Shown: piece after piece, positions 20,890 to 37,739 of the stretch
How the letters are laid out: every line of letters starts with the position of its first letter
How positions within the stretch are numbered: position 1 is the stretch's first letter
IMG/VR virus record: IMGVR_UViG_2716884207_000004
Span: 1,808-65,807 of that record
Length of the DNA: 64,000 nt
Source: a virus
Taxonomy: Duplodnaviria > Caudoviricetes
Strand: one strand, 5' to 3'
Translations under genes and position numbers: made by a program
The notes under the pieces: generated by a model
The model's input: only the letters and a program-made list of their open reading frames with translations
Databases searched by the model: none
What the model was told of the DNA's origin: nothing

Positions 20890-22470
20890 TTATGCGTTAG
20901 GGTCTTTGTCGTCTTCTTCCGTTTCATCTTCCGGCGATCCGCCGTTTGTAGACTCACCGTAAGGGTCTTGCGACTGCATTTTAAGATTGCGCTCCTGTAA
21001 AATCTCCATAAATTTAGCTTCCGGATTTTCTTTTCCGCTTCGAGCGATCGCGCCCTTTACGGATTCCATTTCGTTAGAAATTTCTTCGCCTAGCTGCGTA
21101 ATTAACGCCGCTTGGTCTTCCGGTAAAGGAAGTCCGAAGATAATTTTGTTATCGTAATACTCATCGACTTGCGATAGAAGCTTATGGTCGTATTTGAATC
21201 GCGGATGTTCTTGGCGCGCTTTCATATAACGCAAGATATATTCGTTCAACGTTTGTAAACGGGACTGCCAAACGATCCAAGCCCGCTGCGTTTTCGAAAT
21301 GATCGAGCCGTATAGCAGCTTTAGCGCCATGTCGTTAATACCGCCGGTATTCATATCAGCCGTATTGACCATCGGAACTTCGCTGATTTCGTGGAGCCGT
21401 TTCTGCATCCGGTCAAGGTACGCTTCGATCGCTTCTTTAAATTTAAATCCACTTTCAAGCTTCTTCGCGTCTGGCGTCCCTCCGCCTTCTTGGCCCGATT
21501 CTCCGAGGTCCCAAATCGCACTAGGCGAAACTTGAAACGGATTTTTCGGATCATAATCTACGTCAGTTAGTAACGTAATCGCAAACATTTCAAACCGAAG
21601 GGCATCGGAGTAGTCCGATATTTTACGGTCTATTTCGTCGGCCGTGTCGATCAGTTTCTCGATCTCGCTGTAACCTTCGCTATGTCCAGTAAGTTTGTCC
21701 GTTGGGATATGAACAACCGGGATAAAATCGAGCCCCATCGATTTTCTTTCGACTCTCTGATCGCGCAAGGACAGTCCGTCGTCATAAACGGCTTCCTCGA
21801 TCTCGCAATCATAGGCTCCGGTTTCTTCGTCCCCTTTCCATACGAGATAATACGAAAGCTTCCAAAGGCGCGTCTGCTCTTCGTCAAGCCACGCTACAAA
21901 ATGAACAGCGTCTAATTGGTCGGCGTCCCATTCGTTATGAACAGCGATAACTTCCGTCGAAGGGTGCCACAGGATTTTAATTTCGCCGCGTCGAGTGTCG
22001 TAGTGGAGTCTTGCGTACACGCCCGTACGACTGATGGCACGATCTTTAGCCGCCGCGAGAAGCTTTTCGTGCATCCGGTTATCATCCCAAACCCACTTCA
22101 GTAGCCGCTCTTTCGCCTTTGCCCGACTATTTTCCGCTTGCTGCTCCGCGCTTGGTTCGTAACCTGGTTGCATCATTTGCGCTGGATCGTCGATTACATC
22201 AGGCGGTACTGATACTTTCGGCTCTTTCTCGAATTGCCAAGCCGCCATCGTATCGATCAACTTTCGCGGGTAGTTCATCGAAAGTGTAGTCGGCTCATAT
22301 GCGATGTTGTCCGGCTTAATATAGTCGGACCAAACGTTTAGGCTGCCTTCATAGCGCCGATAAAGCTTAATTTCGTCGCAAATACGCTGGAATTCGCGTG
22401 AACCGATTGCTTCTTCGATAGGTATCACGAATTGAAACGGGTTAATAAAATTACGATCAACAATTACGAT
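20890..22470 (-). CDS. Portal protein (SPP1-like); start re-called at ATC 22470
   Basis: RRYEG, NYPRKLID, FIPVVHIP, follows terL; AAGGAGG-N8-ATC in frame. Confidence 0.85.
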   Translation of the reverse strand: MVIVDRNFINPFQFVIPIEEAIGSREFQRICDEIKLYRRYEGSLNVWSDYIKPDNIAYEPTTLSMNYPRKLIDTMAAWQFEKEPKVSVPPDVIDDPAQMMQPGYEPSAEQQAENSRAKAKERLLKWVWDDNRMHEKLLAAAKDRAISRTGVYARLHYDTRRGEIKILWHPSTEVIAVHNEWDADQLDAVHFVAWLDEEQTRLWKLSYYLVWKGDEETGAYDCEIEEAVYDDGLSLRDQRVERKSMGLDFIPVVHIPTDKLTGHSEGYSEIEKLIDTADEIDRKISDYSDALRFEMFAITLLTDVDYDPKNPFQVSPSAIWDLGESGQEGGGTPDAKKLESGFKFKEAIEAYLDRMQKRLHEISEVPMVNTADMNTGGINDMALKLLYGSIISKTQRAWIVWQSRLQTLNEYILRYMKARQEHPRFKYDHKLLSQVDEYYDNKIIFGLPLPEDQAALITQLGEEISNEMESVKGAIARSGKENPEAKFMEILQERNLKMQSQDPYGESTNGGSPEDETEEDDKDPNA

Positions 22471-22489
22471 TTAAAACGCCTCCTTTCGT

Positions 22490-24241
22490 TTAGTAACGGT
22501 AATTACCGACATTACCGCCTTTGCGTCTGCGCGATTTAGCCGCAGCAGAAACCGCCATTTCTAAAGCATCGATAACGTCATCGTGGGCTCCGGTTCCGTA
22601 CTGTTCGAATTGCTCAAGTAATAGCGCATGCCTCCGATCAAACTGGATTGTTCCGTTCTCGATTGAAGGCAATAACGCTTCGATACGGAGCTCTTTACGG
22701 CTACGGTGTTTTATTTTCTTAACGCGAGTATCTGCCGGATAGCCAGCTTTCGTTAATTGTTTCTTGAGCTCATCTACGAAAAACTCTTGCGCCGCCTGTG
22801 CTTCTGCCGCAATTACGGTCGGCTGAAACTTAACGACCTTCTCGACGATGACTTTCATAAACTCGTCCGGCTTCAAACGCTGTCCGAACGCGTCAATAAC
22901 ATAAATAGAGCCGCTAATCTTATCGATAGCGACTGTCGTTATTGCGGAATAGTCTCCACGCTCTTTCCCCATCGCAAAATCCACCGCAAGGGAAACGTCA
23001 TATTTCATGTAATCTATATTACCGTTGTGGTACGTGAACTTTTCCGGATTAAAAATCATCGATTCCTCGTCGATTGGATGGTTCATGTACTCGGTATTGA
23101 ACGCTTTTGATCCGTTATCCCATTTCCAGCGCATTAATTTAAACAACGGCTGGACTTCCGGCCATAAAACTCGGCTGCCGCGCAATAATTCGGCTTCATT
23201 TTCTTTATAAAACCGTTCTGCGTCGGCTAATCGGTTCGGATTTTCGCGATCAATATAAATTAGGCGGCACTTTTCCCAAAGATCGAGTCGTTCCGGTTGT
23301 TTGATAATGGCGCGATAGACTTTCGTGACGAAGTCCGACCGCTTATATAGAACGTGCATTAAGAGAGCGTCCATGTGAACCGTCGTTCCCATGTAAACGA
23401 AGGCCGTCCGCTTTCCTTTCGGATCACCTAACGGCATGACCGTTTGAGAGAACCAGTTCCGGAGACTATTTCGCTGTTCCGGCGTGCTGGCGTTTCCTCC
23501 TGGGCGCGCATCCTCTAAGTCGTCGCAAATAATAAGGTCCGGACGCGTACCGTTCCAGTTACGACCACGCAACGCTTGACCGGTAGATGCCGCTTGGACT
23601 AGCGCGAGCTGCTTTCGACTGTCTCCGTCTGGATGCCACGCGATAAATGATTCGGAGTTATCGATAATATTCGCTTGGTCTTGCGGCGACAATAACGGGC
23701 CGAAGTCGGCGCGCAGCTTCTTGTTAAACTTGAGCTGATTCCGAATCCATTCCATATTCGCTTTCGATACCGAAGGCGTTTCCGAAATGATGATCGTGTA
23801 TTTCCGTCGCCGATAAACGATTTCGTGAACCGGAAAGGCTTTCGATAAGTAAGTCGACTTTGCGTGCGAACGAGGCGCCGCTGCCGCTATCTTTTCGTTA
23901 ACCTTTTCGGAAGACACGACGTTCATAATGTCGCATATCTCTACGTGGAAATCGGGCGCTTCGCTCACATCCGTAACATCGAATCCGTCCCAGTTTCCGT
24001 CATTATCCGGGTTTCGTGCGTCCGAGAAATATTCGATTGAGAACTCGAGCAGATTACCTTCGCATCGATGAATCCGTTTAAGCCGCTCAAGCTCGGTCGC
24101 TTTTTCGTAATAATCGGCGATCTCTGACGCAGGAATGTCGTCGCCGTACGTTTCATCTAACGCGTCTAAGTATTCAGTTAGAACGTTGATTAATTCAGCG
24201 CGTTCAGCCGGTTTGAGCCAGCGTCCGTCAACCCATGCGAT
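22490..24241 (-). CDS. Terminase large subunit (583 aa if started at ATC 24241)
   Basis: APRSHAKST, LRGR, DLIICDDLE, YMGT, AVDFA, HDDVIDA; frame open 91 codons upstream of the track start to AAGGAGG-N8-ATC GCA TGG. Confidence 0.9.
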   Translation of the reverse strand: MAWVDGRWLKPAERAELINVLTEYLDALDETYGDDIPASEIADYYEKATELERLKRIHRCEGNLLEFSIEYFSDARNPDNDGNWDGFDVTDVSEAPDFHVEICDIMNVVSSEKVNEKIAAAAPRSHAKSTYLSKAFPVHEIVYRRRKYTIIISETPSVSKANMEWIRNQLKFNKKLRADFGPLLSPQDQANIIDNSESFIAWHPDGDSRKQLALVQAASTGQALRGRNWNGTRPDLIICDDLEDARPGGNASTPEQRNSLRNWFSQTVMPLGDPKGKRTAFVYMGTTVHMDALLMHVLYKRSDFVTKVYRAIIKQPERLDLWEKCRLIYIDRENPNRLADAERFYKENEAELLRGSRVLWPEVQPLFKLMRWKWDNGSKAFNTEYMNHPIDEESMIFNPEKFTYHNGNIDYMKYDVSLAVDFAMGKERGDYSAITTVAIDKISGSIYVIDAFGQRLKPDEFMKVIVEKVVKFQPTVIAAEAQAAQEFFVDELKKQLTKAGYPADTRVKKIKHRSRKELRIEALLPSIENGTIQFDRRHALLLEQFEQYGTGAHDDVIDALEMAVSAAAKSRRRKGGNVGNYRY

Positions 24242-24270
24242 AAAGATCGCCTCCTTTTCGTTAATTTCGT

Positions 24271-24329
24271 TTGACTTTCGTTATCATTTTCGTTACTATG
24301 AGTGTAACAAAATATAAATTAAGTTACGG
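24271..24329 (+). promoter_or_regulatory. SigA promoter of recombinase with downstream recombinase core-like palindrome
   Basis: TTGACT-N17-TACTAT (24271-24299); GTAAC-N14-GTTAC at 24304-24327. Confidence 0.7.
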
Positions 24330-24341
24330 AGAGTGAACGAA

Positions 24342-24893
24342 ATGGCTAACGAAGTATTCCCGATTAAATCTAAGCGCGATTTTAATAAACTGAAGAACGC
24401 CCTGAACGGTCGCAACCGTCTGTTATTGACGCTCGGCACCGCTTTTGGGCTGCGTATCAGCGACTTATTAACGCTTAAGGTCGGGGATCTTCGCGGCCAA
24501 GATTCGCTAGTCATTACGGAACAAAAACGTAAGAAAAAACGTAAGATTACGTTTAGTTCGTCCGTGCTGCGCGAAATCAAGACGTATTTAAGTGACGCTG
24601 ACGATAAAGACTACGTATTTGCCAGCCGTCAAGGTGGCGGCAAGCCGATTAGTCGCGTTCAAGCGTACCGGATACTCAACGACGCTGCCGAACGGGCCGG
24701 CATTGCGGATAAAATCGGCGCGATAGGAACGCATTCGCTCCGTAAGACGTTCGGCTATCGGCTGCACGAAAACGGCGTTGATATTACGCGCATTATGTCT
24801 ATACTCGGACACTCAAGCGAGCGCGAAACGTTGAGATACATCGGAATAACGGCCGACGAAATATCGGAAGCTTACGAAAGCATCGAGGTTTAA
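24342..24893 (+). CDS. Small tyrosine recombinase (catalytic domain only)
   Basis: GLRISDLL (R), HSLRKTF (HxxR), LGHSS, YIG (Tyr). Confidence 0.92.
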   Translation: MANEVFPIKSKRDFNKLKNALNGRNRLLLTLGTAFGLRISDLLTLKVGDLRGQDSLVITEQKRKKKRKITFSSSVLREIKTYLSDADDKDYVFASRQGGGKPISRVQAYRILNDAAERAGIADKIGAIGTHSLRKTFGYRLHENGVDITRIMSILGHSSERETLRYIGITADEISEAYESIEV

Positions 24894-24970
24894 GCCTGCG
24901 GTGCTTTTTTTATTTACGCAAGCACAAAAAGACCGCCGCCGTAGGGTGCGGAAGCCTCGTTCTGATTGCG

Positions 24971-25037
24971 TTAGACTCACGTAGGCTAAGTCGACCGTCG
25001 GGTTCTAAACCCTTTCGAATGTCGAACGCAAGTCTAA
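24971..25037 (-). ncRNA. Putative structured RNA element upstream of a terminator
   Basis: Nested stems TTAGACTTGCGT/ACGTGAGTCTAA, TCGAC/GTCGA, GGGTT/AACCC. Confidence 0.4.
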
Positions 25038-25225
25038 ATTAATCTCTCGACAGCTGGGCGCCCATGTATCCCGTTATCGCCTAATTCAGCAAGCGCGACT
25101 ATAATCTCTTCATCCGTCAAGTCGATTCCAATTTGTTTTACCTGTAAAAAGGCGTCGATAATCATATCCGTTGTTATGTTGTGACGTTCTGCCGCCGAGT
25201 AAACAAATCGAAGAATACGCTCCAC
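25034..25225 (-). CDS. Hypothetical protein
   Basis: SD GGAGG before GTG. Confidence 0.6.
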   Translation of the reverse strand: MERILRFVYSAAERHNITTDMIIDAFLQVKQIGIDLTDEEIIVALAELGDNGIHGRPAVERLI

Positions 25226-25249
25226 CTTCTCGCCCTCCCTTTGAAATTA

Positions 25250-25331
25250 CACGAAATTAGCGTTTCTAACGTTTACCCTACCGAATACCCTCCGGCTGGA
25301 TTAAAACGGCTGTGGCGCTTTAATTTCGTGG
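25250..25331. repeat. Dispersed ~70-80 bp element, copy 1 (others near 32064-32137 and 60964-61018)
   Basis: TACCCTACCGAATACCCTC identical at 25274 and 60964; CGCTTTRATTTCGTGG shared with the 32.1-kb copy. Confidence 0.65.
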
Positions 25332-25339
25332 TAGAATCG

Positions 25340-25618
25340 TTATCTATTACGTAATTGTTCGATAACCCACTCCGCTCCCATTAAGAAATCGCTCGTCACT
25401 CCGAAATAAGGTGCGTCTGTTAGCGAAATCCCTAGCGCATCTAGCGCTTCTTTTGGCGGGCTGGTGCCGCCGACTACTGCGATTTCAGATTCCGGAAGCT
25501 TTTCGGAAAACTTAACCGCGATAAAATAGCCGTCAGTTGTCAGGCGATCGCTTACCGTTACTTCTTCGCCTTTGAATTCCGTTAAATCAGCGATAATACT
25601 TTCGATTCCTCGTGGCAT
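25340..25618 (-). CDS. Hypothetical protein
   Basis: SD AAGGAGG before ATG. Confidence 0.7.
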   Translation of the reverse strand: MPRGIESIIADLTEFKGEEVTVSDRLTTDGYFIAVKFSEKLPESEIAVVGGTSPPKEALDALGISLTDAPYFGVTSDFLMGAEWVIEQLRNR

Positions 25619-26061
25619 AGTGGACGCCTCCTTTCCGTTAGGTCAAAGTGAATTTTTGAAATACGCGTTTAAAATGTGCCTGGCGTCCGGGCTTTTCGTT
25701 TTTCCTCCCCCGCCCCCTTTTCGTTTTTCATACGGTATGCACCGTTTTGTATATCGAGTGTAACATTATCGGATTAAGTTACAGTGGAGGGGTGGTCCGG
25801 TCGTTGATATAACGGCATTCATTCGTGTTTGTATTGCGTTATGTATTACGTTTTATTTATGCATCGTATGAACCGTGATATATCAACGTTTATATATACG
25901 GCAGTGATAACGCGATATGTATAAGATACTGTATAATTGCGGGGCCTATTCCGAAAGTGATCGAGGGGTCGCGCGCCAATGAGCCTCGGCTGATAAAATA
26001 AAAGCGCCCGTCAAACGGCGTAACCTACCGCTATCAGAACGCTTCATATATTACTGTCCGC

Positions 26062-26897: not shown

Positions 26898-27923
26898 TCA
26901 ACGCCACCTCAACGACAGTATTTTCCCCGCTAGAAATAACCCGAATACCGCCTTCCGTTTTAGCATCGCCAGGTAAATCCGCCGCGCCAAACTCTCCTCG
27001 TGCTGCAACGCTATCTCTACCGCCTTCCCTACGTTCGGATGCTCGACTATGCGCTCAATCAACGCTAATTTTTCGCGCATCCCTTTATCGCAGCCCGGCT
27101 TAAATTCGTTCTGTATACACCCGTTTACCGCGATATAACACTTCCGCCGAGCTAAGTCTACCGCAACCTTTTCGTCGTATAACCTCCATCGTTTCGCATA
27201 CGTTTCTAGCGTGTTTCCGTTTATGTACGAATCGAATAGCTCAGGATTATATTTGCGCATTAAACTGGCGTCGTTTATTTGCCGGTAATGGTACAACGGT
27301 TTATCGATATAATAAGCCGTCTGACAATACGTAAACGCGTCCATATTAAACAGCCAATCTTCGCCGAGATACTTACCGTCAGGAAACGCTAAACCATACG
27401 TATCTATTAAACTTTTTCGGATTAACTTCCATACGCCGCCATATGAGCCGTTATATAAAAAGTCCGTTAATATTTCCGCTTTAATTTCGTCCCGACCTAA
27501 CGGCGTATTTGCTTTTGTGCGATAACTTTTCGTATAGTTTTTCGTAGGGTCTTCGTAATCCCAGCAGATATCCGTAAATACAATATCGGCGTTATTTGCG
27601 ACGGCGGCTTCGTACATGGTCGCGTATGTCTCTCGTTCGATCCAATCGTCGGCGTCGATAAATGCGACGAATTCGCCGCGCGCCTGCTCCAGCGCATTAT
27701 TTCGCGCCGTGGCCGGTCCCTGATTCGCTTGGTAGATCGGCTTGACACGTTCGTCAATGGCTTCGTAGTATCGTAAAATATTGCGCGTTGAATCGGTCGA
27801 GCCGTCATCTACGATCAAAACTTCGATATTCTTCAGCGTCTGGCCGAGCACGCTGTCTAAGCATTCGCGCAGGTACTTTTCGCCGTTGTATACCGGTATA
27901 ATAACGCTCATTTTCGGAGTCAT
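26898..27923 (-). CDS. Family 2 glycosyltransferase (EpsH/EpsJ-like)
   Basis: SVIIPVYN, VDDGSTD, FIDADD, GEDWLFN, LYHYR; own promoter TTGAAA-N16-TATAAT (28001-27974). Confidence 0.92.
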   Translation of the reverse strand: MTPKMSVIIPVYNGEKYLRECLDSVLGQTLKNIEVLIVDDGSTDSTRNILRYYEAIDERVKPIYQANQGPATARNNALEQARGEFVAFIDADDWIERETYATMYEAAVANNADIVFTDICWDYEDPTKNYTKSYRTKANTPLGRDEIKAEILTDFLYNGSYGGVWKLIRKSLIDTYGLAFPDGKYLGEDWLFNMDAFTYCQTAYYIDKPLYHYRQINDASLMRKYNPELFDSYINGNTLETYAKRWRLYDEKVAVDLARRKCYIAVNGCIQNEFKPGCDKGMREKLALIERIVEHPNVGKAVEIALQHEESLARRIYLAMLKRKAVFGLFLAGKILSLRWR

Positions 27924-27939
27924 TTCGTCCACCCTTTCG

Positions 27940-27957
27940 GTTCGGGAATTCCCGAAC
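27940..27957. promoter_or_regulatory. Perfect 18-bp palindrome in the GT2 leader (operator-like)
   Basis: GTTCGGGAATTCCCGAAC; one-mismatch copy at 54758-54775. Confidence 0.6.
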
Positions 27958-28021
27958 TTGTATCGATAGGATAATTATACCAACTCGAATCCGAATTTCA
28001 AGACGAAAAAAAGACGCCGAT

Positions 28022-28243
28022 TTATTCAGCGTCCTCTTCCGTTTCTTTTACTTCGAATAATTCTTCGTATTTGGCTCCGGTTGCTTTCATAATCGATGCG
28101 ACATGCCAATCGTAGTGTCTTTCGGAATTATCAAACCGAGATATCGACGCCTGTGGAACGCCGGATCTCCGCGATAATTCGGATTGCGACCAATCTAGCT
28201 GCGAAAGAACCGCACCAAGACGAGGCTTTACCGTAAGTTTCAT
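28022..28243 (-). CDS. XRE-family repressor divergent from the hydrolase operon
   Basis: SQSELSRRSGVPQASISRF HTH. Confidence 0.88.
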   Translation of the reverse strand: MKLTVKPRLGAVLSQLDWSQSELSRRSGVPQASISRFDNSERHYDWHVASIMKATGAKYEELFEVKETEEDAE

Positions 28244-28296
28244 TTCGATCACCTCGCGACAATTATACGCCAGAGAATATTTTTTCGCAATTCCTC

Positions 28297-28325
28297 TTGA
28301 CGCCTCTTATACGCTAGCGTATAGT
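28297..28325 (+). promoter_or_regulatory. SigA promoter with operator TATACGCTAGCGTATA
   Basis: TTGACG-N17-TATAGT; perfect 16-bp palindrome at 28308-28323. Confidence 0.85.
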
Positions 28326-28375
28326 TTATTGTAACGAAGGGCCCTCGTTAATAAAATCCGAGAGGGGTTAACGAA

Positions 28376-29182
28376 ATGATTAACGAAACACAAAAACTGA
28401 ATAAGGCGATTTTAGAACGAAACGGAGGCGCAGCCCCACCGACCAAAGCAAAGCTGCACCGTCCGAATCGAGCGAAGCACTTCCAGTATATCACAGCGTT
28501 TATTCTATGCGCAATGTTATCCGCATTCACAGCAGTCACCGCAGTCACCGCGCAAGCCACCGATGTTTACCGCAACTTTGCCGAACTCCAAGCAAACGAA
28601 CCCGAGACGAATTACAACATATTCGCGACCGATCACGCCACACCCGTTTTGATACTCGCGCCACACGGCGGCAGTATTGAAGGCGGAACTAGCGAACTTG
28701 CCCGCGAACTCAGCAACGACTATTCAACGTATCTTTTCGAATCGCTTAAGACGCCGAATGGCTTCGACCTCCACATCACGAGCACTCACTTCGACGAACC
28801 GACCGCGCTTGACCTGGTTACGCGCCACCAACGCGTTATATCGCTCCATGGTTATAGCGACAGCGCCGAACACATTATCGTAGGTGGCACCGATCCAATA
28901 CGCGGTCAGGCGTTAGTGGACCGCTTGAATGCTGCCGGCTTTAGCGCCGAACTCGTAGGCGAAGGACATCGATTTGCGGGCGCCAGTGCTGCGAATATAG
29001 CGAATAAGTGCGTAACCGGCGAAAGTCTGCAGCTGGAACTTAGTACCGGTTTGCGGAAAAGCATGTTCGGTACGTTCTCGCTTACTGGACGCGCTGGAAC
29101 CGAAACCGAGACGTTCTATAAATTTACCGGGTTGCTGTCGGCCTTTATTAACGAAAATTATAACGTTGGAGGTAACGAATAA
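28376..29182 (+). CDS. Poly-gamma-glutamate hydrolase (PghP/YoqZ/YmaC family), probably exported
   Basis: APHGGSIEGGTSE, LHITSTHFDEP, SLHGY, QLELS; hydrophobic signal-like segment before the domain. Confidence 0.92.
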   Translation: MINETQKLNKAILERNGGAAPPTKAKLHRPNRAKHFQYITAFILCAMLSAFTAVTAVTAQATDVYRNFAELQANEPETNYNIFATDHATPVLILAPHGGSIEGGTSELARELSNDYSTYLFESLKTPNGFDLHITSTHFDEPTALDLVTRHQRVISLHGYSDSAEHIIVGGTDPIRGQALVDRLNAAGFSAELVGEGHRFAGASAANIANKCVTGESLQLELSTGLRKSMFGTFSLTGRAGTETETFYKFTGLLSAFINENYNVGGNE

Positions 29183-30945
29183 TGATGCGATATACGTTGG
29201 AAGTCGAAAAGTACGGTATTTACTGCGATGGAACTGAGGCGGCCGCAACTACGCAAGGAATCAATCGCGCAATTTTCGAAGCCGCTGAGGCCGGTTATTC
29301 TGAGGTTTATATACCGAAAGGTAAATATCTTATAGACGCAGTAAATCGACTTTCTGTTAAGCCGGAAGAAGGAGCCGGGATACGTGTGCCATCGTGCATA
29401 ACTCTAATATTGCATCCAAAAGCAGAATTCATCGTTGAGTCAAATAGTTCTTACGGTTATTCATGCATCTATATTGGAGAGGTCAAGGATGTAACGATAA
29501 AAGGCGGCAAGATCCGAGGCGAGCGTTATCAGCACGATTTTACCGGTCACGGCGACCTCGAAAAGAGGAAAACGCACGAATGGGGTTACGGCATAAACGT
29601 ACATGGCTCGAAAAACGTCGTAATTGAAGGCGTTGATATTGCGGACTTTACTGGCGACTGTATTATGGTTAACGCGCAAGGAATGCTTAACGTTTCCTGG
29701 ACGACTTACCGCCCCGCTCGCAATATAACGATTAAAAACTGCAAGTTAGACGGAGCACGCCGTAATAACATATCGGTTACAGGCGGCGAGGACGTTAAGA
29801 TTCATGATAACGAAATTACCAACGCGGGCATAAACGATGGCTGTATGCCAATGTTGGGCATTGACATCGAAGGATATGGTGAAGGCGACATTGATTACGA
29901 AGAGCCACGCAACGTCAAAATAACGAATAATACTTTCGTAGGCAACGTGGCACAGTCGGTGTGTAACTTCAGCGGTTATGAGGTCGTTATATCCGAAAAC
30001 CATTCGGACAATACGATCTCTTACGGATATGGAACCGATACAAACATCGAAAATAATATATTTGTTCGTAAGGATAAAAAATACACTGCAATTGCGGGGC
30101 TCGGTGTTTCGGCAGGTTTCATAGGAAATAACGCAACCATTTCCGGTAATACAATAAAAGGCTTCAGCAGTGGTATAGATGTTCGCGGCGGTGACGTTAC
30201 CGTTTCAGACAATACGATTTCAGAATTAAGCGTGGACGGTATTGCCTTAGCCACATTCGAAGCCAAGAACGTTAAATTCTCGGATAATACCGTAAACCAC
30301 TGTCCAGGAAAGCTGTGTTGCGCGCGCAATTCTAGAGATATAACGTTCGAAGGTAACGAATTAAATGACTCGGATATCACCGCGATGGAGATCATCGATT
30401 CTACCAACGTTAAAGCAAAGTCGAATGATATAAAGCGAAGCAAACAAGGCGTCGTAATTACGAGGTCCTCAGCGAAAGTATTCGATAATGACGTCGATCT
30501 TACCGAGTATCCTAACGCTGCGGGATACTCGGTAGCTTTCGATAAAGGCAGTGACGTATTTATTAAAAACACTCACATCCCATCGCCAACAAACATGGCT
30601 ATATACGGAGAAAGCGCTGAAGGTCGAACGGTGCGCATCAAAGACAACGATATAACTGACGCGAAGTGTTTGATACCGATTTACGTTATAGGCGGTAAAA
30701 AACCCGAGATATCAGGAAATGATATAACGTTTAACCGGACGTCTTCCGGTGGTTACGGCATTCAAACGAAGAACACAGACGGCGCGTTAGTAAAGGAAAA
30801 CGTTGTTTATTCCGTTAGTTCTTTCGCGTTGTATAATCCGATAAAGACCTCCGAGTCTATTAATTCGCGAGTTATCGGAAACAAAATATCCGGCAACCTT
30901 TCGCTTAATCAAACGGACATAGAGACGAATAATATTCCAATTTAG
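29182..30945 (+). CDS. Right-handed parallel beta-helix protein (SPbeta YorA-like; possible polysaccharide lyase)
   Basis: Repeated beta-helix rungs; THEWGYGI, RRNNIS, GIDIEG; coupled to pgh as in SPbeta yoqZ-yorA. Confidence 0.8.
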   Translation: MMRYTLEVEKYGIYCDGTEAAATTQGINRAIFEAAEAGYSEVYIPKGKYLIDAVNRLSVKPEEGAGIRVPSCITLILHPKAEFIVESNSSYGYSCIYIGEVKDVTIKGGKIRGERYQHDFTGHGDLEKRKTHEWGYGINVHGSKNVVIEGVDIADFTGDCIMVNAQGMLNVSWTTYRPARNITIKNCKLDGARRNNISVTGGEDVKIHDNEITNAGINDGCMPMLGIDIEGYGEGDIDYEEPRNVKITNNTFVGNVAQSVCNFSGYEVVISENHSDNTISYGYGTDTNIENNIFVRKDKKYTAIAGLGVSAGFIGNNATISGNTIKGFSSGIDVRGGDVTVSDNTISELSVDGIALATFEAKNVKFSDNTVNHCPGKLCCARNSRDITFEGNELNDSDITAMEIIDSTNVKAKSNDIKRSKQGVVITRSSAKVFDNDVDLTEYPNAAGYSVAFDKGSDVFIKNTHIPSPTNMAIYGESAEGRTVRIKDNDITDAKCLIPIYVIGGKKPEISGNDITFNRTSSGGYGIQTKNTDGALVKENVVYSVSSFALYNPIKTSESINSRVIGNKISGNLSLNQTDIETNNIPI

Positions 30946-30946
30946 C

Positions 30947-30975
30947 TTGACTTTACCTATACGCTAGCGTATAAT
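30947..30975 (+). promoter_or_regulatory. Second SigA promoter with the same operator TATACGCTAGCGTATA
   Basis: TTGACT-N17-TATAAT; palindrome at 30958-30973. Confidence 0.85.
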
Positions 30976-31003
30976 TTAATTATAGAAAGGAGGGAAAAAC
31001 GAA

Positions 31004-31117
31004 TTAAACGCGGAAACGGTACTAATTATAACGGCGATAGTAAACTTCGTCATTGCGGTAACGAATTTGGCAACCGCCTGCGTTAACGCAAAAAACGCTA
31101 ATCGCAAAAACGACTAG
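31004..31117 (+). CDS. 37-aa hydrophobic micro-peptide without a canonical start (TTA); may be a pseudogene
   Basis: SD AAAGGAGG then frame LNAETVLIITAIVNFVIAVTNLATACVNAKNANRKND*. Confidence 0.45.
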   Translation, partial: LNAETVLIITAIVNFVIAVTNLATACVNAKNANRKND

Positions 31118-31213
31118 CGCCAGAAACGTTGATACGGGGATAGATGTGAGAGTCCTCCCCGTGTCTCCTATAGTACCGTATCAAAAACGAAAACACAAGG
31201 AGGCGAGCGCGCC

Positions 31214-31303
31214 ATGTTAACGGCTTTATCTATCGTAATTACGGCGGCGGCCCTGATCGTTGCAATCGCGGGCCTGGTCGTCGCATTCAAACGGAGGCGA
31301 TAA
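31214..31303 (+). CDS. 29-aa single-TM peptide with basic tail (type I toxin-like)
   Basis: SD AAGGAGG; MLTALSIVITAAALIVAIAGLVVAFKRRR*. Confidence 0.7.
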   Translation: MLTALSIVITAAALIVAIAGLVVAFKRRR

Positions 31304-31307
31304 CGGT

Positions 31308-31511
31308 ATGCAGCAGCTTATGATTCGCAAAATATGGTCGGATACACCGGCACTTACACCGCAGCAGGAAGCGCAGATCCTCGACCTATACGAGCGCCCC
31401 GCCGCCGAATTCGGTCGATGTGGGCGCGCTTACCAAATTGGCATCAATTCGATGTTACAATACTTCGGCTATCGGATCGAAAATGAGATCGGAGACGCTA
31501 ACGATGGTTGA
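31308..31511 (+). CDS. Hypothetical protein
   Basis: SD GGAGG before ATG CAG. Confidence 0.65.
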   Translation: MQQLMIRKIWSDTPALTPQQEAQILDLYERPAAEFGRCGRAYQIGINSMLQYFGYRIENEIGDANDG

Positions 31512-31620
31512 ATACGCTTGTAACGAATGTAATTACGCAAGACTTGACGTAAAAATAGAGCCTGACGCGTGCCGCCCTACGTGTGGAGCGCGCCTACAGG
31601 TCGAGGAGGAAATCGTATGA
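31504..31620 (+). CDS. Small zinc-ribbon-like peptide (one Cys apparently lost)
   Basis: CNEC...CRPTC; SD GGAG; overlaps neighbours. Confidence 0.45.
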   Translation: MVEYACNECNYARLDVKIEPDACRPTCGARLQVEEEIV

Positions 31621-32054
31621 AACGTTTATTTAAATCAATCGTAATCACCGCGGCTCTTTTAACGAGTACAATCGCCTTAGCACCGCAAGCAGACGCAGCA
31701 TGGTCGGGCTGGCAGACGGAAAAGTTCGGACATAAAGCGCGTGTATATACGGATGCGACTACGTATACTAGCAGCGCGAAGACGGTCGATTGGAAAGCCG
31801 AAAAGAAAGGCGCGGCCACGCTTTATTATACGGCCGGCGTTTATAAAAAGCGTTCAGGTGGCGGGCTGACTGACACTGGCTTGGTACAGCGCGGAAGCTT
31901 TAAGACCGCAACGCCGCTGAAGTCATTTAGCGTAAAGTCGATCCGTGGTAAAACTGGCTCCGGAAGCTACGTAATCCAGATCGATTGTTATACGGATTCA
32001 GGCAAGCGCCATTATATCGGGACTTTTGAGTCAGCGCGTTTTAACGTGAAATAA
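31617..32054 (+). CDS. Secreted beta-rich protein
   Basis: MKRLFK-hydrophobic-ADA signal peptide; SD GAGGAGG. Confidence 0.8.
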   Translation: MKRLFKSIVITAALLTSTIALAPQADAAWSGWQTEKFGHKARVYTDATTYTSSAKTVDWKAEKKGAATLYYTAGVYKKRSGGGLTDTGLVQRGSFKTATPLKSFSVKSIRGKTGSGSYVIQIDCYTDSGKRHYIGTFESARFNVK

Positions 32055-32429: not shown

Positions 32430-32621
32430 ATGGGAGGTATATGTAAGGCCTGCGGATTTGAGGAGACCGAAAAGGAAAAATTCAGAAGAGTAGTTAATGG
32501 CGGAGCTGTTGAACGTCTAGCAAGCCCTGATAGCTTTTTAACCGAAATCGATATGGAATCTTACTTAGGCATGTGTCCTAAATGCTTTACTGTTCGCGTT
32601 CTAAATGTTGATTCCAATTAA
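32430..32621 (+). CDS. Small zinc-ribbon protein
   Basis: CKAC...CPKC. Confidence 0.65.
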   Translation: MGGICKACGFEETEKEKFRRVVNGGAVERLASPDSFLTEIDMESYLGMCPKCFTVRVLNVDSN

Positions 32622-32625
32622 AGAA

Positions 32626-32656
32626 AAATAAAGACGCCTTAGCGGGCGTCCTTTTT
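32626..32656. terminator. Bidirectional terminator
   Basis: GACGCC-TTAGCG-GGCGTC flanked by A and T runs. Confidence 0.75.
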
Positions 32657-32660
32657 CGTT

Positions 32661-33464
32661 TTATACCTCCTTGACGTTAAACAGCGCGATCAACGTTTTG
32701 TCCGGCGTCTTAGATTGTCGATAGAAAACGTTAGGGTTAAACGTAAATCGCTCCGGCTCTGTACCAACTTTAATGCGCGCGACAACGTACTCACCGTCAA
32801 ACTTCATCTGCTTAAGGCGGCGACCTAGTGTGTCCGACGTTACTCCGATAGCTTCCGCAAGCTCTTTCTTATTAAACCACCGGATGCGTTTCGGATTCTT
32901 TTCGAAAGGATTTTCGCAAAGTGCATTCGTCTCGAAATGTATGAACGGCAACATGCGATAAATAAGACCGATGTCCGTCGCCTTCACTTCGCTATATACG
33001 CGTTTAATTTTCGCAGTATACAGCTTAACAACGTATTGGCTACCGAAGTTGCCTTTAAAGTGGTAGTGCTCGTTTACGCTGTAACCATCGTTGGTCTCTC
33101 GGATAATGTCACGTTCAATGCATGCGGATAAGAAATCATAGAAGGTCATTCGTTTCTTGCCGAGCTGTAATACGTCCATCATATCCGTAGTTGACATAGG
33201 CGTTTTATTTCGGCTCGATTTAACGAGAACACCGTTATAGTCAACGTAACACTGAAGAAGCATTAAATAACCGCACTGTGCCGTTGTAAGAGCGTTATAG
33301 ACTTCGTGAATATTAGACATATTCGCGTTAGAGAAGTCGCGTCGATCGGCCGTCTTTTCTTGTTGCTGGCGGAAGGCTTCGTCTTGGTTTCGGTGACGCA
33401 GCGTATAGCTTTCTGATAGATCCTCGCCGGTTTCTGTGTTCACAACTCGTAATCTTCTACTCAT
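32661..33464 (-). CDS. RepL-like replication protein (two winged-helix-like halves)
   Basis: VVNTETGE start; YSVNEHYHFKG and FTFNPNVFYR motifs; HTH KELAEAIGV. Confidence 0.6.
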   Translation of the reverse strand: MSRRLRVVNTETGEDLSESYTLRHRNQDEAFRQQQEKTADRRDFSNANMSNIHEVYNALTTAQCGYLMLLQCYVDYNGVLVKSSRNKTPMSTTDMMDVLQLGKKRMTFYDFLSACIERDIIRETNDGYSVNEHYHFKGNFGSQYVVKLYTAKIKRVYSEVKATDIGLIYRMLPFIHFETNALCENPFEKNPKRIRWFNKKELAEAIGVTSDTLGRRLKQMKFDGEYVVARIKVGTEPERFTFNPNVFYRQSKTPDKTLIALFNVKEV

Positions 33465-33528
33465 ATAAACGTCCCCTTTTCGATAAAATAAAAAGCGCTG
33501 TATAAGCGCTCTCATAACGTATAGACAA

Positions 33529-34017
33529 CTAGTGGTAGGTTTTTTCGCCTGTAGCGATATTTACGGTGAATTGCCCTGGCGTCTTTCCGTTAACAAACGC
33601 GGAGTAACATTTCCTGCGCTCTAAATTTCGAGCCTTGGCACGCTTATCGAGTAGTTTATTTTCGTAATTGGATCGTGTTCTGCGGATTGGTAGACCTTTG
33701 TACGCACCGTTTTGGTCGTACTCTTCCGCCAACTTATCGGAGGCTTCTCGTTTATAACGCTCCTCCAACTGTGTCTCGCTCATAATCGGGTATTCATTTC
33801 GCGTAACTTTATCCGGGTGTGAATCGGAAAGCTCCTCGTAAATTATGAGATTAGCCAATCGGTCAAGCGCGGTAACGTCCGGCTGTTCTCCGGTAGAGTC
33901 ATAATAAGCGTTTACTAACGCCATAGTTTCTTTGATACGTTCCTGGCGCGCCAGCTTTCCGGCCTTAGTACGTTGGTACATTTCCTTAATTGTTTCGTGC
34001 AGCAAAGGTTTATCCAT
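33529..34017 (-). CDS. Phage protein coupled to sigma-70 region 4 gene
   Basis: SD GGAGG; start overlaps upstream stop. Confidence 0.7.
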   Translation of the reverse strand: MDKPLLHETIKEMYQRTKAGKLARQERIKETMALVNAYYDSTGEQPDVTALDRLANLIIYEELSDSHPDKVTRNEYPIMSETQLEERYKREASDKLAEEYDQNGAYKGLPIRRTRSNYENKLLDKRAKARNLERRKCYSAFVNGKTPGQFTVNIATGEKTYH

Positions 34018-34399
34018 TGATTCGCCCTCCCGTCGTATACCCTTCGTTATGACTCGCCCAGTAGTAGTAAATGTCCGCAACCTTTTCGGCAGACCTCGAT
34101 ATATAAGCCTCTACATTTTGTTTAGCGATGCCCATCCGTTCGCCCGCCTCTGCTTGCGTTAGTTCTCCGAAGTAAACGAGCTCGATCGCCTGACGCTGGC
34201 GGTCCGTTAGATTCGCTAATTCGATCGCCTTGTGAATATCGATAAGAATCGTCGCCGCGTCGTAATCTCCGCATCGCTTGCGGCTGACGAACTTCTGATA
34301 ATCGGCGAGTAATAGTTTCACGCCTTCTGCGTTATCGAGCGCATAAGTTGCGTCGAATTCGCGTTCCTTTCGGTGTAGATCAACTTTTACTGAACCGAT
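34010..34399 (-). CDS. Sigma-70 region 4 protein (late regulator); start re-called at ATC 34399
   Basis: LTDRQRQAIELVYFGELTQAEAGERMGI; AAAGGGG-N9-ATC GGT TCA in frame. Confidence 0.8.
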   Translation of the reverse strand: MGSVKVDLHRKEREFDATYALDNAEGVKLLLADYQKFVSRKRCGDYDAATILIDIHKAIELANLTDRQRQAIELVYFGELTQAEAGERMGIAKQNVEAYISRSAEKVADIYYYWASHNEGYTTGGRING

Positions 34400-34478
34400 G
34401 TTAACCGTCCCCTTTCGTTGACTCCTTCGTTAATTTCGTTTATGATTAACGTAAACGCTTCCGAAAGGAGTTTCGTTT

Positions 34479-34874
34479 ATGGTTCTTACGTGGATATCTA
34501 ACGACTTTGAGCGCAACCTCAAAGCGTACATAACTATCGAAAAGCAGCGCCGCCTGTTCATCTCGGCAGGAGCGCGTCGTATTATCGGATTACCTACGGA
34601 CGGTCCGTTTTATTTGACGGTCGCCTATGACGCGGATGAAAAGCGTATCGTAGTCGGCAAGCCCGAGTTAATAAACCAACCGGACGTCAAGCCGTTCAAG
34701 TTCGATAAGCGCGGCAACGTGTCGGCCATTCCGTTCTTGCGTAAGGTCGGCATTGATTTTGATAGCCTACCGCAGCGCTATTATTTGATCGGCGATGGCG
34801 AGGCGTCCAAGCAACCGTATTTAGCGTATCCTTCACATACATACGCGTTTCAGTTAGACGCCGACGCCAATTGA
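34479..34874 (+). CDS. Counter-oriented hypothetical protein with own SigA promoter (AbrB-like N-terminus possible)
   Basis: TTGACT-N17-TATGAT at 34418-34446; SD AAGGAG; YITIEKQRRLFIS. Confidence 0.75.
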   Translation: MVLTWISNDFERNLKAYITIEKQRRLFISAGARRIIGLPTDGPFYLTVAYDADEKRIVVGKPELINQPDVKPFKFDKRGNVSAIPFLRKVGIDFDSLPQRYYLIGDGEASKQPYLAYPSHTYAFQLDADAN

Positions 34875-35797
34875 TCCGCAAGCGCCCTTCCGATATACCA
34901 CGCAACGCGCGAAGCAATTCCGTTACCGACAATCCGATATTGCGCCGATAAAGAAATATCGTCTGGCAGGACGTAAGTATCTGGCGCAGATTGGATTCGG
35001 AGACATTCGCGAACGGTGAAACGGCGCGGCGCTTCCGTTGGGTGGATCGGCTGTCCGCTGTTGTGGTGTGCTGGAATCGTATTAGACGGCTTATCTAGCG
35101 ATTGCACGCGATTGGCTTGATCGTATGTGTATTCGCTTTTTGGCGTCCAATATTTTCCGCAGTCTTGACGTTCGGGTTCCGGTAAATCGCCGATAACATC
35201 CCGCAATACTCGCGTCCGATAATCGCCTTCTAACGGCTTCGGAAACTCGAAAGTAAAGCCGAGGTCTTTCCGTACACCGACGATAAACACCCGCTCGCGC
35301 TTCTGTGCTACACCGTAATGCCACGCATTTATAACCTGCCAACTAATCTCGTAACCTATTTCGTTAAATTTCTCGATAAGCGCATCAAATGTAGGACGGT
35401 GGCGCTTCGTTATCAACCCTTTTACGTTTTCAAACACGAAGGCTTTCGGCTGCTTTGCCGCAATGATTTCGAGGTAGCGCCATACTAATTTTCCGCGTTC
35501 TCCGTCAGCGCCGGCGCCTTTGCCTGCGACCGAGAAGTCCTGACACGGAGGGCCTCCGAATATAACGTCTGTGTTCGGTAAACTATCGATATCTACTGCG
35601 TTAATATCCGCCTGTTCAACGTGATCGCCGAAATTATGGCGGTAGGCTTTAACGGCATTCTTATCGAAGTCCAGCGCCTTTACAATATCGTATCCAGCCG
35701 CTTTAAAGCCGATTGCTCCAAGTCCGCCTCCGCAAAAAAGTTCCAGTACCGTAAGTCCGGTTGCCGGCTGTTGCGGCGTTAAGTTAAACTCCGTCAT
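34850..35797 (-). CDS. Orphan DNA (cytosine-5) methyltransferase
   Basis: LFCGGG, GGPPCQDFS, ENVKG, QKRERVF, RRFTVREC, YRIVGN. Confidence 0.95.
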   Translation of the reverse strand: MTEFNLTPQQPATGLTVLELFCGGGLGAIGFKAAGYDIVKALDFDKNAVKAYRHNFGDHVEQADINAVDIDSLPNTDVIFGGPPCQDFSVAGKGAGADGERGKLVWRYLEIIAAKQPKAFVFENVKGLITKRHRPTFDALIEKFNEIGYEISWQVINAWHYGVAQKRERVFIVGVRKDLGFTFEFPKPLEGDYRTRVLRDVIGDLPEPERQDCGKYWTPKSEYTYDQANRVQSLDKPSNTIPAHHNSGQPIHPTEAPRRFTVRECLRIQSAPDTYVLPDDISLSAQYRIVGNGIASRVAWYIGRALADQLASASN

Positions 35798-36360
35798 AGT
35801 ATCGCCTCCATCAACGCATCCAGTTTCGCGTATAATTCATCGATCGTACCGTCGTTTGTAATTTCGTAATCAACTTCGAAATCCAGCAGCGCAAGCTCGG
35901 TCGGATGCTTCAACGCGACCAAGTCGAAATCATCGCCGGCTTTTCTTGCGCGTTCAATCCGTAGTTCCTCCGGCGCCATGATGCGTATTAGCGTAAACCC
36001 TTCGGCGCGCAGTCGAGCGTATTCGTTTGGCTGTCGGCAATCTTCGACCAACACGCGGTTTTTGAGCATTGGCGCTAGGCCGCAATCACAGTCGCAGGCA
36101 TATCGCGCCAGGTAAGCGTCGACTTTCGTCATGGTGGCGTTAACCCAAACGTCTTCGCCGAAAGCTTCTCGCGCCCACTGTCCGAACTTTTGATAATGCG
36201 CGCGTGGCTTCGGCTTTTCGGGCACGGACGGGAAAGCCCGATGAAAGGCGGCTTTGAGTTCGTCGCCGAATGCGAACGGATGGAAATCGTAATGCAGCGC
36301 CAAGTACCCGGCGGCTTCCGACTTGCCTGCGCGTAACGGTGCGGTTAGGGCGATCTTCAT
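35794..36360 (-). CDS. Deoxynucleoside monophosphate kinase-like
   Basis: P-loop APLRAGKS, DCRQPNE, HPTE, ITNDGT. Confidence 0.8.
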   Translation of the reverse strand: MKIALTAPLRAGKSEAAGYLALHYDFHPFAFGDELKAAFHRAFPSVPEKPKPRAHYQKFGQWAREAFGEDVWVNATMTKVDAYLARYACDCDCGLAPMLKNRVLVEDCRQPNEYARLRAEGFTLIRIMAPEELRIERARKAGDDFDLVALKHPTELALLDFEVDYEITNDGTIDELYAKLDALMEAIL

Positions 36361-37133
36361 GGGCGCATCAACAACCTTTCGATAATTGCCGCCAATTCGT
36401 CCGCGGTAAATAACTTTTCGCCTTTAACTCCGGTCGCACTTTCCTTTAACCGTTCCAATTCCTCGCCGAGCGTCCGATTGTCTTTGTGCAGCGTGTCGAT
36501 TTCGTCTTTTAGCGCTAAGTACCTGCGAGTGTTTTCGGATCGGATTTTCATGTCCTCGTCCAAAGCCGCATGTAGTTTTTTATTCTCGCGCTCTAAGTCC
36601 GCAACACGCGCTGCCAGATTAGATACGACGTCGATTAGGTCGGCTGGCTGTGGTTCGTCGGCTTCGGCTGATTCTACCGGGACGAGTACGCGATAATTAG
36701 TTTTCACGACAATCCCAACGCCCCATTCACCAACGCTATCGTCAACGAAGACATCGGTCACGGTTAGGACTTTTCCGACTGGCAATCGACCTAATTGCGT
36801 TTGAGTAGTAAGAATCTTCTCGCCCACTTCCGCCTTGCGCTCGGTTAATTCGTAGCGCCCACCGTCAATGTGTACGATGTCGGTCGGTTCGAGTACGCGG
36901 TATGCTCCGTGGAGGATATACCACGATTCGTCCTCGTATTTACTTTCGAATTCGACTTCAGCATCGTCAATATCAACGTCAATAACCTTTCCGTATTCCT
37001 TTTCTGAATAGTACGGACAGTTTCCGAAAATAGATACGATCTTCTCGATGACCTCCGCCTTCCGATCGACCTCTACGTATTCTCGCTTGATGCCGCCAAG
37101 TGTTTCGTCAGCCAGTACGTGGATTTTCGTCAT
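36357..37133 (-). CDS. Hypothetical protein with tandem RKAEV(G)EKI modules and coiled coil
   Basis: Internal repeat visible in translation. Confidence 0.7.
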   Translation of the reverse strand: MTKIHVLADETLGGIKREYVEVDRKAEVIEKIVSIFGNCPYYSEKEYGKVIDVDIDDAEVEFESKYEDESWYILHGAYRVLEPTDIVHIDGGRYELTERKAEVGEKILTTQTQLGRLPVGKVLTVTDVFVDDSVGEWGVGIVVKTNYRVLVPVESAEADEPQPADLIDVVSNLAARVADLERENKKLHAALDEDMKIRSENTRRYLALKDEIDTLHKDNRTLGEELERLKESATGVKGEKLFTADELAAIIERLLMRP

Positions 37134-37148
37134 TTATTCCGCCTCCCA

Positions 37149-37739
37149 TTAATTTATTACGCGAACCTGCACCGACTGCCGTCCGAACTGCACAGCGTCG
37201 GCTTCGTCCGCAACCAATACGTCAATCTTGGCGCCTTTAATCGCGCCCCCAGTATCGAGCGCCACGGCTTCAAACGTCGTGCCGTCCGCCTGCTTTACTT
37301 CAACCGCCGAACCCAACGCAATCACTGACGGATCGACCGCTATAATGCGCTTGCCTGCGTGATAGATCGTTCCGGTTACGTCTATGCCCGTTGCGGTAAT
37401 TCCGCTGCAACCTTCGGGACATCGCGCGGTATACGCAGACGCTTGAAACGTTTGCCACGCGTTTGGATTCGCGGGTTTATTTTCGTTAGTATTTTCGTTA
37501 TTTTCCTTCGGTTTTGGTCGCGCCTTTGGCTTCGCTTTGACTTCCGCCCTCAACGTCGCCACTTCGTCCTCAAGCGCCTGGATACGCGCGTCTTTCTTTT
37601 CCGCCTCAGCTTCCGCTTTCTGCAACGCCGCATCTTCTTCCGTGATGCGCGGCGGATCTGGCGGTGGTGGCTCCGGCGGCTTGGCGGTTGGATTCGTAAG
37701 TAATTGCGTTGACATCGCTAGATTCGTTAGTATACCGAT
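37149..37739 (-). CDS. 3D-domain protein (lytic transglycosylase-like); start re-called at ATC 37739
   Basis: ASAY, GITATG, IAVDPSVIALGS, DTGGAIKG.KIDV; GAGGAGG-N7-ATC. Confidence 0.88.
   Translation of the reverse strand: MGILTNLAMSTQLLTNPTAKPPEPPPPDPPRITEEDAALQKAEAEAEKKDARIQALEDEVATLRAEVKAKPKARPKPKENNENTNENKPANPNAWQTFQASAYTARCPEGCSGITATGIDVTGTIYHAGKRIIAVDPSVIALGSAVEVKQADGTTFEAVALDTGGAIKGAKIDVLVADEADAVQFGRQSVQVRVIN

Follow-up and report, generated by a model that had tools for sequence, protein, structure and literature searches.

Which codon starts translation when the reading frame behind a strong Shine-Dalgarno (SD) sequence opens with ATC instead of ATG, GTG or TTG? This question is raised by four genes in the window, as we call the whole stretch of 64,000 nucleotides analysed here (G000:C12:136818-200817 of a genome of 4.07 Mb and 44% G+C). 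Two of them are terL and portal, encoding the large terminase subunit and the portal protein, the third is a gene for a protein with a sigma-70 region 4 only (sigma-r4), and the fourth encodes a 3D-domain protein. The window contains an integrated prophage of about 60 kb with mostly minus-strand genes. Its nearest sequenced relatives are the Bacillus subtilis phages phi18-2, 268TH007 and 268TH002, with a TerL that is 99% identical, and the prophage is of the phi18-2 / 268TH007 type. A preliminary description of the window had claimed that all four genes appear to start at ATC, and had proposed a translational throttle or a gate shared by them. The reading put forward here is that ATC is the functional start codon of terL, portal and sigma-r4 and acts as a translational attenuator, to which we assign a probability of about 0.8 on the basis of sequence comparisons.

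ATC behind strong Shine-Dalgarno sequences

All four sites read on the minus strand exactly as claimed, each with a strong SD at a functional spacing of 7-9 nt and a predicted SD-antiSD duplex between -13.7 and -17.4 kcal/mol (Table 1). The best canonical start in the same frame reaches -6.6 kcal/mol in terL, -8.8 in portal, -9.6 in sigma-r4 and -8.2 kcal/mol in the 3D gene, which agrees with the earlier observation that the canonical alternatives have no evident SD. The terL frame is open from 24241 to 22490 and its first in-frame ATG, GTG or TTG is GTG 23968, 91 codons downstream of the ATC, which therefore indeed adds 91 amino acids to the called open reading frame (ORF). In portal, an in-frame TAA immediately precedes the ATC. 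For terL, portal and sigma-r4 there is no competing canonical start able to give the conserved protein. Because of the strong SD, the lack of a usable canonical start and the alignment with the starts of homologues, ATC is almost certainly the initiation codon of these three genes, and the support for a real start over drift or a sequencing artefact is strong for them and moderate for the 3D gene. The start of the latter is less certain, since two further codons are in frame there, ATG 37715 (8 codons downstream, without SD) and GTG 37772 (11 codons upstream, inside thyX; TTG in 268TH007). Both count against the ATC, which is still the probable start of the 3D gene at somewhat better than even odds.

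The sites stand out when the surroundings are scanned without regard to annotation. Between positions 20300 and 45900, six ORFs have a non-canonical candidate that is more than 3 kcal/mol better than every canonical one; four are the genes in question, and the remaining two (ATA 30563 and ATT 26937) lie antisense to or within other genes. The whole genome was searched for GGAGG followed after 6-9 nt by any triplet that opens a frame of 100 codons or more, on condition that a stop lies no more than 20 codons upstream and that no canonical start is found within 10 codons. ATC leads the triplets with 7 of 71 sites, a count in which one site appears twice, and in a control with a spacing of 12-15 nt it was absent from the 12 commonest triplets listed. 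Moreover, AACGAAA(A)GGAGG plus 7-9 nt also precedes ordinary ATG starts at 58915, 58562, 50070, 40888 and 4332, and therefore the ATC sites lie in the normal initiation context of the phage. The base at -1 is T in terL and A or C in portal, sigma-r4 and the 3D gene. That all four sites read ATC-G, as had been pointed out before, is true, but simply reflects Ala, Gly or Val as second codon; terL homologues with a canonical start also have Ala in this place (Ser in one).

The products are recognisable by their domains. TerL matches PF17289 (E = 1.1e-11) and PF22530 (E = 2.8e-6), and its AAPRSHAKST at residues ~121-130, which we take to be a Walker A-like motif, is (nearly) invariant among homologues. 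The portal protein matches PF05133 (E = 2.2e-19) over residues 34-495, i.e., most of the protein. In the sigma-like protein of 129 amino acids, region 4 alone was detected (PF08281 and PF04545, residues 61-106) instead of the regions 2 and 4 of a sigma-70 factor. GenBank labels its relatives as sigma factor or SigK-like; the product is a sigma-region-4-like helix-turn-helix (HTH) protein.

Table 1. Coordinates of the four genes and of the SD sequences in front of their ATC codons.
Feature	Positions	Strand	Description
terL, terminase large subunit	22490..24241	-	583 codons + stop, start ATC 24241 (almost certain); Pfam Terminase_6C and T7 RNaseH-like
Extended SD of terL, GAAAAGGAGG	24250..24259	-	8-nt spacer cgatcttt to ATC GCA; -1 base T; -17.4 kcal/mol
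portal (SPP1 Gp6-like)	20890..22470	-	526 codons + stop, start ATC 22470 (almost certain); Pfam SPP1_portal
Extended SD of portal, GAAAGGAGG	22479..22487	-	8-nt spacer cgttttaa to ATC GTA; -15.8 kcal/mol
sigma-r4, sigma-70 region-4-only gene	34010..34399	-	129 codons + stop, start ATC 34399 (almost certain); Pfam Sigma70_r4 and r4_2
SD of sigma-r4, GAAAGGGG	34409..34416	-	9-nt spacer acggttaac to ATC GGT; -13.7 kcal/mol
3D-domain (YorM-like) gene	37149..37739	-	196 codons + stop if from ATC 37739 (probable); alternatives ATG 37715, GTG 37772; Pfam 3D
SD of 3D gene, GAGGAGG, 3' end of thyX	37747..37753	-	7-nt spacer tgtaagc to ATC GGT; -15.5 kcal/mol

The terL start codon among relatives

It could be assumed that the four genes are translated from the downstream canonical codons, GTG 23968 in terL, GTG 22428 in portal, GTG 34321 in sigma-r4 and ATG 37715 in the 3D gene, and that the open frame upstream of these codons is accidental. 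These are the ORFs listed by a standard gene caller, and ribosomes that have terminated at the thyX stop could reinitiate at the ATG of the 3D gene, only 8 codons past its ATC. In GenBank, terL and portal of 268TH007 and 268TH002 are annotated in truncated form, and such forms are also found in the record of phi18-2, in which terL itself is extended to an upstream TTG without SD. However, a usable SD is missing in front of all these downstream codons, and the terL homologues of other phages match from query residue 1 (tblastn). The ATC GCA TGG of the window aligns with the annotated starts GTG GCG TGG of Sporosarcina phage Lietuvens and ATG GCG TGG of Paenibacillus phage Heath, so that homologues with a canonical start begin exactly at the ATC position. 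In 14 aligned homologues the 91 codons before GTG 23968 are conserved as protein and hold many invariant residues, among them W3, W8, R14, F67, E70, Y71 and F72, and in a wider set the first eight codons show synonymous variation. When the best 120 database relatives of TerL were sorted by their N-terminus, 28 fell into a mostly N-truncated group, and others begin at a codon upstream of the IAW motif. In the portal gene of 268TH007, the GTG of the window reads GTA and the first ATG follows 64 codons in. A start at the downstream codons is thus very improbable.

How the terL start codon behaves over larger distances was followed in two sets of relatives. The first holds one genome per species with 68 loci, out of which 65 were used, all matching from residue 1 with 46-72% identity; the hosts are Bacillaceae, Paenibacillaceae, Thermoactinomycetaceae and others, and four genomes have two loci each. 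Three distant matches that do not start at residue 1 (L076-L078) were left out. For the second set, taken from IMG/VR, 75 of 80 loci were used and five were left out since they do not match from residue 1. At the 65 prophage loci the start codon is ATC in 47 cases, ATG in 8, TTG in 6, ATT in 3 and GTG in 1, which means that a canonical start stands at the ATC position in 15 of the 65. The 75 IMG/VR contigs gave ATC 56, ATG 11, TTG 5, ATA 1, ATT 1 and GTG 1, and among these ATC is present in 35/39 contigs from isolate genomes and 21/36 from metagenomes, the source being read from the contig ids. The conservation of the terL ATC, for which an alignment of homologues had been proposed, is borne out by these sets, and that of the N-terminal 91 codons by the 14 aligned homologues. 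Furthermore, an ATG in all close relatives, which the preliminary description had named as a sign of an artefact, was not found for terL and portal: the close relatives have ATC in both, and the distant terL genes have mostly ATC.

The codon itself appears to be maintained, and not only the amino acid that it would encode. In 18 other terL columns with at least 70% Ile, the codons are ATC 423, ATT 363 and ATA 203, whereas the start column has 48, 3 and 0. Neighbouring Ala, Val and Asn codons show free third-position variation, with synonymous changes within the first eight codons. Since Ile codons vary freely elsewhere in terL, the nucleotide sequence ATC at the start is, judged from this comparison, constrained by selection, and as ATT and ATA are scarce in the start column, it does not behave as an ordinary Ile codon. 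In a maximum likelihood tree of 65 rows, from which the first residue was removed and L074 was left out (cut at 301 amino acids), ATC is present in every major clade and the remaining codons are dispersed over the tree, which takes a minimum of 15 changes. The context varies together with the codon. The mean SD duplex energy is -17.5 kcal/mol at ATC loci, -13.9 at ATG loci and -15.2 at TTG loci, and the SD is stronger at ATC than at all 15 canonical-start loci (Mann-Whitney p = 3e-4, shared ancestry ignored). A T at -1 is found in 42/47 ATC loci vs 7/15 canonical ones (Fisher p = 0.0013, shared ancestry ignored). The stronger SD and the -1 T at ATC loci may be read as compensation for a poor start codon. 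Apart from SD, spacer and start, the alignment of terL upstream regions revealed only loose ACG-spaced elements as conserved. The position in the operon was considered as a cause of the ATC and rejected: an abutting same-strand ORF lies upstream of 27 ATC loci, a divergent ORF upstream of 6 and neither upstream of 11, so that ATC is independent of first-cistron place.

A different explanation would be that ribosomes start upstream or out of frame and reach the terL frame by frameshifting or by termination and reinitiation, with the ATC being read as Ile or passed through. Candidate starts are indeed present. One is a short ORF (ATG ... TAA) that both the window and 268TH007 have in front of the SD and that in the window has 8 codons and ends 4 nt before the terL SD; the other is an out-of-frame ATG at +5 (ATC GCA TGG), which is found in 32/47 ATC loci vs 6/15 canonical ones and opens mostly a mini-ORF of 2-4 codons. 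Nevertheless, 15/47 ATC loci do without the +5 ATG, the distance between this ATG and the SD core is about 13 nt, and no slippery motif is evident. Reinitiation needs an in-frame start codon, which would again be the ATC. At 32/47 loci, no canonical codon is in frame between the ATC and the preceding stop. Moreover, an ordinary Ile codon would show ATT or ATA as often as elsewhere in terL. We consider such a detour unlikely in the extreme.

It could also be argued that the ATC is an inactivating ATG-to-ATC mutation in a decaying prophage or an assembly error, as the window is an integrated prophage and a single-base change in the start codon is a common route of decay. However, the same ATC is present in three independently sequenced phages, two of which, 268TH002 and 268TH007, come from plaque isolation with three rounds of purification (PMC9476937). 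Both carry the ATC start in terL as well as in portal, and because they form plaques, the ATC is compatible with a working phage and does not point to gene decay. Their announcement does not mention non-canonical ATC starts (PMC9476937). All four frames of the window are intact, and ATC is kept in 47/65 and 56/75 diverged terL homologues. Contigs assembled from four public runs are about 95% identical to the window, and with a best share of no more than 0.29 of the window's words they have to be regarded as relatives; among the differences listed, none falls on the portal positions 22468-22470. Decay or misassembly therefore has next to no probability.

Portal, sigma-r4 and 3D starts and neighbouring features

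In the portal gene, 268TH007, 268TH002 and phi18-2 retain the ATC behind an in-frame stop, and codons 2-15 of 268TH007 differ from the window by five changes, four of them synonymous. The portal N-terminus has the same length as that of Lietuvens, with an identity of only 24%. For a census, the next long ORF after terL was taken and its start picked automatically by SD energy. An ORF was found at 60/65 loci, and the picks were TTG 23, ATG 17, GTG 6, ATC 6, ATA 4, ATT 3 and CTG 1. By inspection, clean starts at AUH codons behind strong SDs are ATA at L011 and L022, ATC at L015, L020, L044 and L070, and ATT at L046.

For sigma-r4 the picture is mixed. The start position reads ATG in 268TH007 (ATG GGT TCA GTA AAA) and in phage Tripp (ATG GGC AGT GTA AAA), and ATA behind AAGGGGG-N8 in phi18-2, whereas ATC is present in six other prophages, two of them from Bacillus (L079, L080) and four from Paenibacillaceae (L093, L094, L097, L101). 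In B. glycinifermentans and B. paralicheniformis prophages this ATC follows AAAAGGAGG-N8 or GAGGAGG-N8. Thirty further genomes gave 21 matches from model position 1, with ATG 15, GTG 2 and ATC at the 4 Paenibacillaceae loci just named. The 3D gene of 268TH007 has kept the ATC, with two synonymous changes between it and the downstream ATG. In SPbetaL5 an ATG precedes the ATC position by four codons. The codon of phi18-2 at the place of this ATG is AGG, and the sequence there becomes AAAGGA-N8-ATC. A genome scan for relatives of the 3D gene returned one irrelevant partial match only.

The trait is thus distributed unequally: among relatives terL has mostly ATC, portal TTG or ATG, and sigma-r4 ATG. 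Therefore, the proposal of a gate shared by exactly these four genes is not supported, and in portal and sigma-r4, which are mostly canonical in relatives, the ATC is not fixed.

RNA structure was rejected as a common element of the leaders of terL, portal and the 3D gene, which fold no better than shuffled sequences (z = -1.17, +0.70 and +0.80, respectively). In the predicted sigma-r4 leader (34400-34470, minus strand), the SD CGAAAGGGG is expected to pair with the upstream CUCCUUUCG (z = -2.54; 5/200 shuffles fold as well). Read on the other strand, the CUCCUUUCG stretch is the SD belonging to a divergent gene at 34479 (+), a context that 268TH007 does not share.

Some further features of the window are given here for completeness. 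A 146-codon ORF at 51981-52421 (-) without Pfam family and without an SD-preceded canonical start has an ATC after GGAAGTGGT-N4 and is a possible candidate for a fifth ATC gene, with a weak SD. In a low-G+C block, a Cro/CI-type HTH gene at 54493-54738 (+; Pfam HTH_3) reads ATG GAG GTG TTT ATT, in which the gene's ATG and GGAGGTG overlap and 5 nt separate the ATT from the GGAGG core; its start may be a leaderless ATG, the GTG or the ATT. The motif AACGAAA occurs 61 times in the window, with about 32 copies expected, mostly on the coding strand. It forms clusters of four copies 9-12 nt apart upstream of terL (24256-24294, -), and of three copies upstream of the sigma-like gene (34413-34477, -); the motif is noted at 25694-25725 (-) as well. 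In part it makes up the SD's 5' extension, and loosely ACG-spaced elements precede terL in relatives too; the motif could serve as late-promoter or regulator site.

Directly upstream of terL and divergent from it lies a gene at 24342-24893 (+) for a tyrosine recombinase of 183 amino acids that has the catalytic domain only (Pfam Phage_integrase). This divergent arrangement is common to 268TH007, 268TH002, phi18-2 and Lietuvens, four phages whose records and paper describe direct terminal repeats. Between the gene for an HTH_Tnp_1_2 protein, whose homologue in KLEB27-1 is annotated as small terminase, and the late-control region there is a block of cargo genes (26898-32054). Judged by translation only, it holds a glycosyltransferase-like gene (-), followed by (+) genes resembling a poly-gamma-glutamate hydrolase and a right-handed beta-helix protein of 587 amino acids.

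A proposed selected attenuator and its possible meaning

The best reading of these data is that AUC initiation is a selected translational attenuator. According to this model, 30S subunits would be anchored by an unusually long SD of the GAAAGGAGG type, with a duplex of 9-10 nt at optimal spacing, and fMet-tRNA, placed in the P site, would read AUC as a near-cognate codon; for terL, a U at -1 that may pair with A37 of the initiator tRNA could help. As AUC is a poor start, the gene would be translated at a low, fixed fraction of the output of AUG. Selection would thereby keep TerL scarce, a nuclease and ATPase needed in few copies, and in sub-lineages likewise the portal protein and the late regulator. 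The likely purpose would be the stoichiometry within the late operon and/or the avoidance of harmful leaky expression. Control of stoichiometry in a polycistronic late mRNA fits the TTG- and AUH-rich portal starts; curbing leaky synthesis of the TerL nuclease, a cell-wall hydrolase and the late activator in lysogens fits the kinds of genes and the fact that ATC is more frequent in prophages from isolates; a gate that senses initiation fidelity fits the specificity for ATC.

Near-cognate starts that limit translation are known from host genes. The AUU start of E. coli infC, encoding initiation factor 3 (IF3), is inefficient and discriminated against by IF3, which makes it autoregulatory, and pcnB starts at AUU as well. 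Work on these E. coli AUU starts is reportedly associated with Binns and Masters in 2002. The prophage resembles infC and pcnB in the use of a near-cognate start that would limit translation, but it differs in the codon, AUC, and in that phage genes are concerned. The host infC (G000:C9:410939-410942, -) also begins with ATT, reading ATT ATT behind GGAGGTG, and IF3-sensitive initiation is therefore available in the host cell. Further host genes may use such codons: candidates for an ATC start behind GGAGG are a GerQ-family gene (G000:C8:699856, +) and a gene for a Lys-rich protein of 349 amino acids (G000:C12:64387, -), and a gene near G000:C12:238294 (-), apparently for a multi-pass membrane protein judged from its translation, may start at ATT.

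The closest parallel comes from Staphylococcus aureus, where Ribo-RET mapped conserved AUU and AUA starts in cvfC1 (AUU) and in ccpN, infC and citZ (AUA), all behind extended SDs (PMC13009471). In reporters these starts reached about 10% of AUG, with ccpN rising up to about 30% in rich medium (PMC13009471). Both systems share Firmicute ribosomes, a near-cognate AUH codon, a very strong extended SD that guides the choice of the start, and an odd codon that is kept among relatives. In S. aureus, however, regulatory and metabolic genes of the host are concerned, with AUU or AUA and starts mapped by Ribo-RET, whereas here morphogenesis and late-control genes of a phage would, judged from sequence, use AUC, a trait that spans many genera. 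The throttle suggested in the preliminary description finds its backing only in the analogy to S. aureus; the ATC loci here have stronger SDs. For the base at -1, a study of E. coli AUG contexts describes that A37 of the initiator tRNA pairs with a U at -1 to form a quadruplet, with a modest boost (PMC10018350). This likeness extends to the terL ATC loci with their prevalent -1 T and to the host, whose three initiator tRNA copies have CAU and whose initiator anticodon loop CTCATAA contains A37; by analogy, the -1 U may compensate for the mismatch at AUC. A special decoding of AUC was rejected, as the window contains no tRNA gene, the host tRNA-Ile(GAU) is ordinary and no initiator-like GAU tRNA is present.

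In place of a fixed attenuator, AUC could be a regulated start that depends on initiation fidelity, e.g., on the ratio of IF3 to ribosomes, the growth state or a phage factor. Efficient synthesis of TerL, and in part of the lineages also of the late regulator and the portal protein, would then be confined to a certain state of the cell, which corresponds to the IF3-sensitive gate of the preliminary description. The ATT start of the host infC, the response of ccpN to rich medium in S. aureus (PMC13009471) and the selection for ATC specifically, instead of any weak codon, would suit such a start. Nevertheless, the lack of a suitable tRNA in window and host, together with the fact that the set of ATC genes differs between relatives, makes it rather unlikely.

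Several points weigh against the attenuator as well. Initiation at these ATC codons is deduced from sequence, and the counts of relatives are not phylogenetically independent, with the GTDB and IMG/VR sets probably overlapping. At 15 of the 47 ATC terL loci, some canonical codon is in frame after the preceding stop and before the ATC; for L014, L020 and L063 it is an ATG at a distance of only 1-2 codons, from which translation may actually begin. The automatic portal picks include the ambiguous cases L018, L032, L037, L045, L047 and L048, and portal and sigma-r4 have mostly ATG or TTG in relatives. On the tree, canonical terL starts arose at least 14 times, so that an efficient start is apparently tolerated, and a model in which the start is simply weak does not account for why ATC is so strongly preferred to ATT and ATA.

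Our literature search, with supplements and most subscription journals lying outside it, yielded no paper on phage terminase or portal genes that start at AUC. Compared with the known attenuation by non-canonical starts with an extended SD, the attenuator proposed here would be new in being AUC-specific, in concerning essential phage genes and in its family-wide conservation. Gene callers that disallow ATC will go on mis-annotating terL and portal of this phage family. With terL, an essential phage gene bears a non-canonical start, and as its AUC is held against ATG, ATT and ATA over 46-72% protein identity, it is to our knowledge among the clearest comparative cases for a selected specific non-canonical start in bacteria. 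A more far-reaching idea, which we regard as speculative and doubtful, is that U-AUC with an extended SD is a distinct, maintained start signal of temperate Bacillales siphophages. It would tie the synthesis of the packaging ATPase and nuclease, and in sub-lineages of the late activator and the portal protein, to the initiation fidelity of the host (IF3 and growth state) and could thereby act as a checkpoint for the commitment to packaging, with the scarcity of ATT and ATA reflecting an AUC-specific property of the ribosome. In any case, the prophage and its relatives offer a natural system for the use of AUC in Firmicutes, for its compensation by -1 U and extended SD, and for the way in which phages may tune dosage or timing of their packaging enzyme by the start codon.

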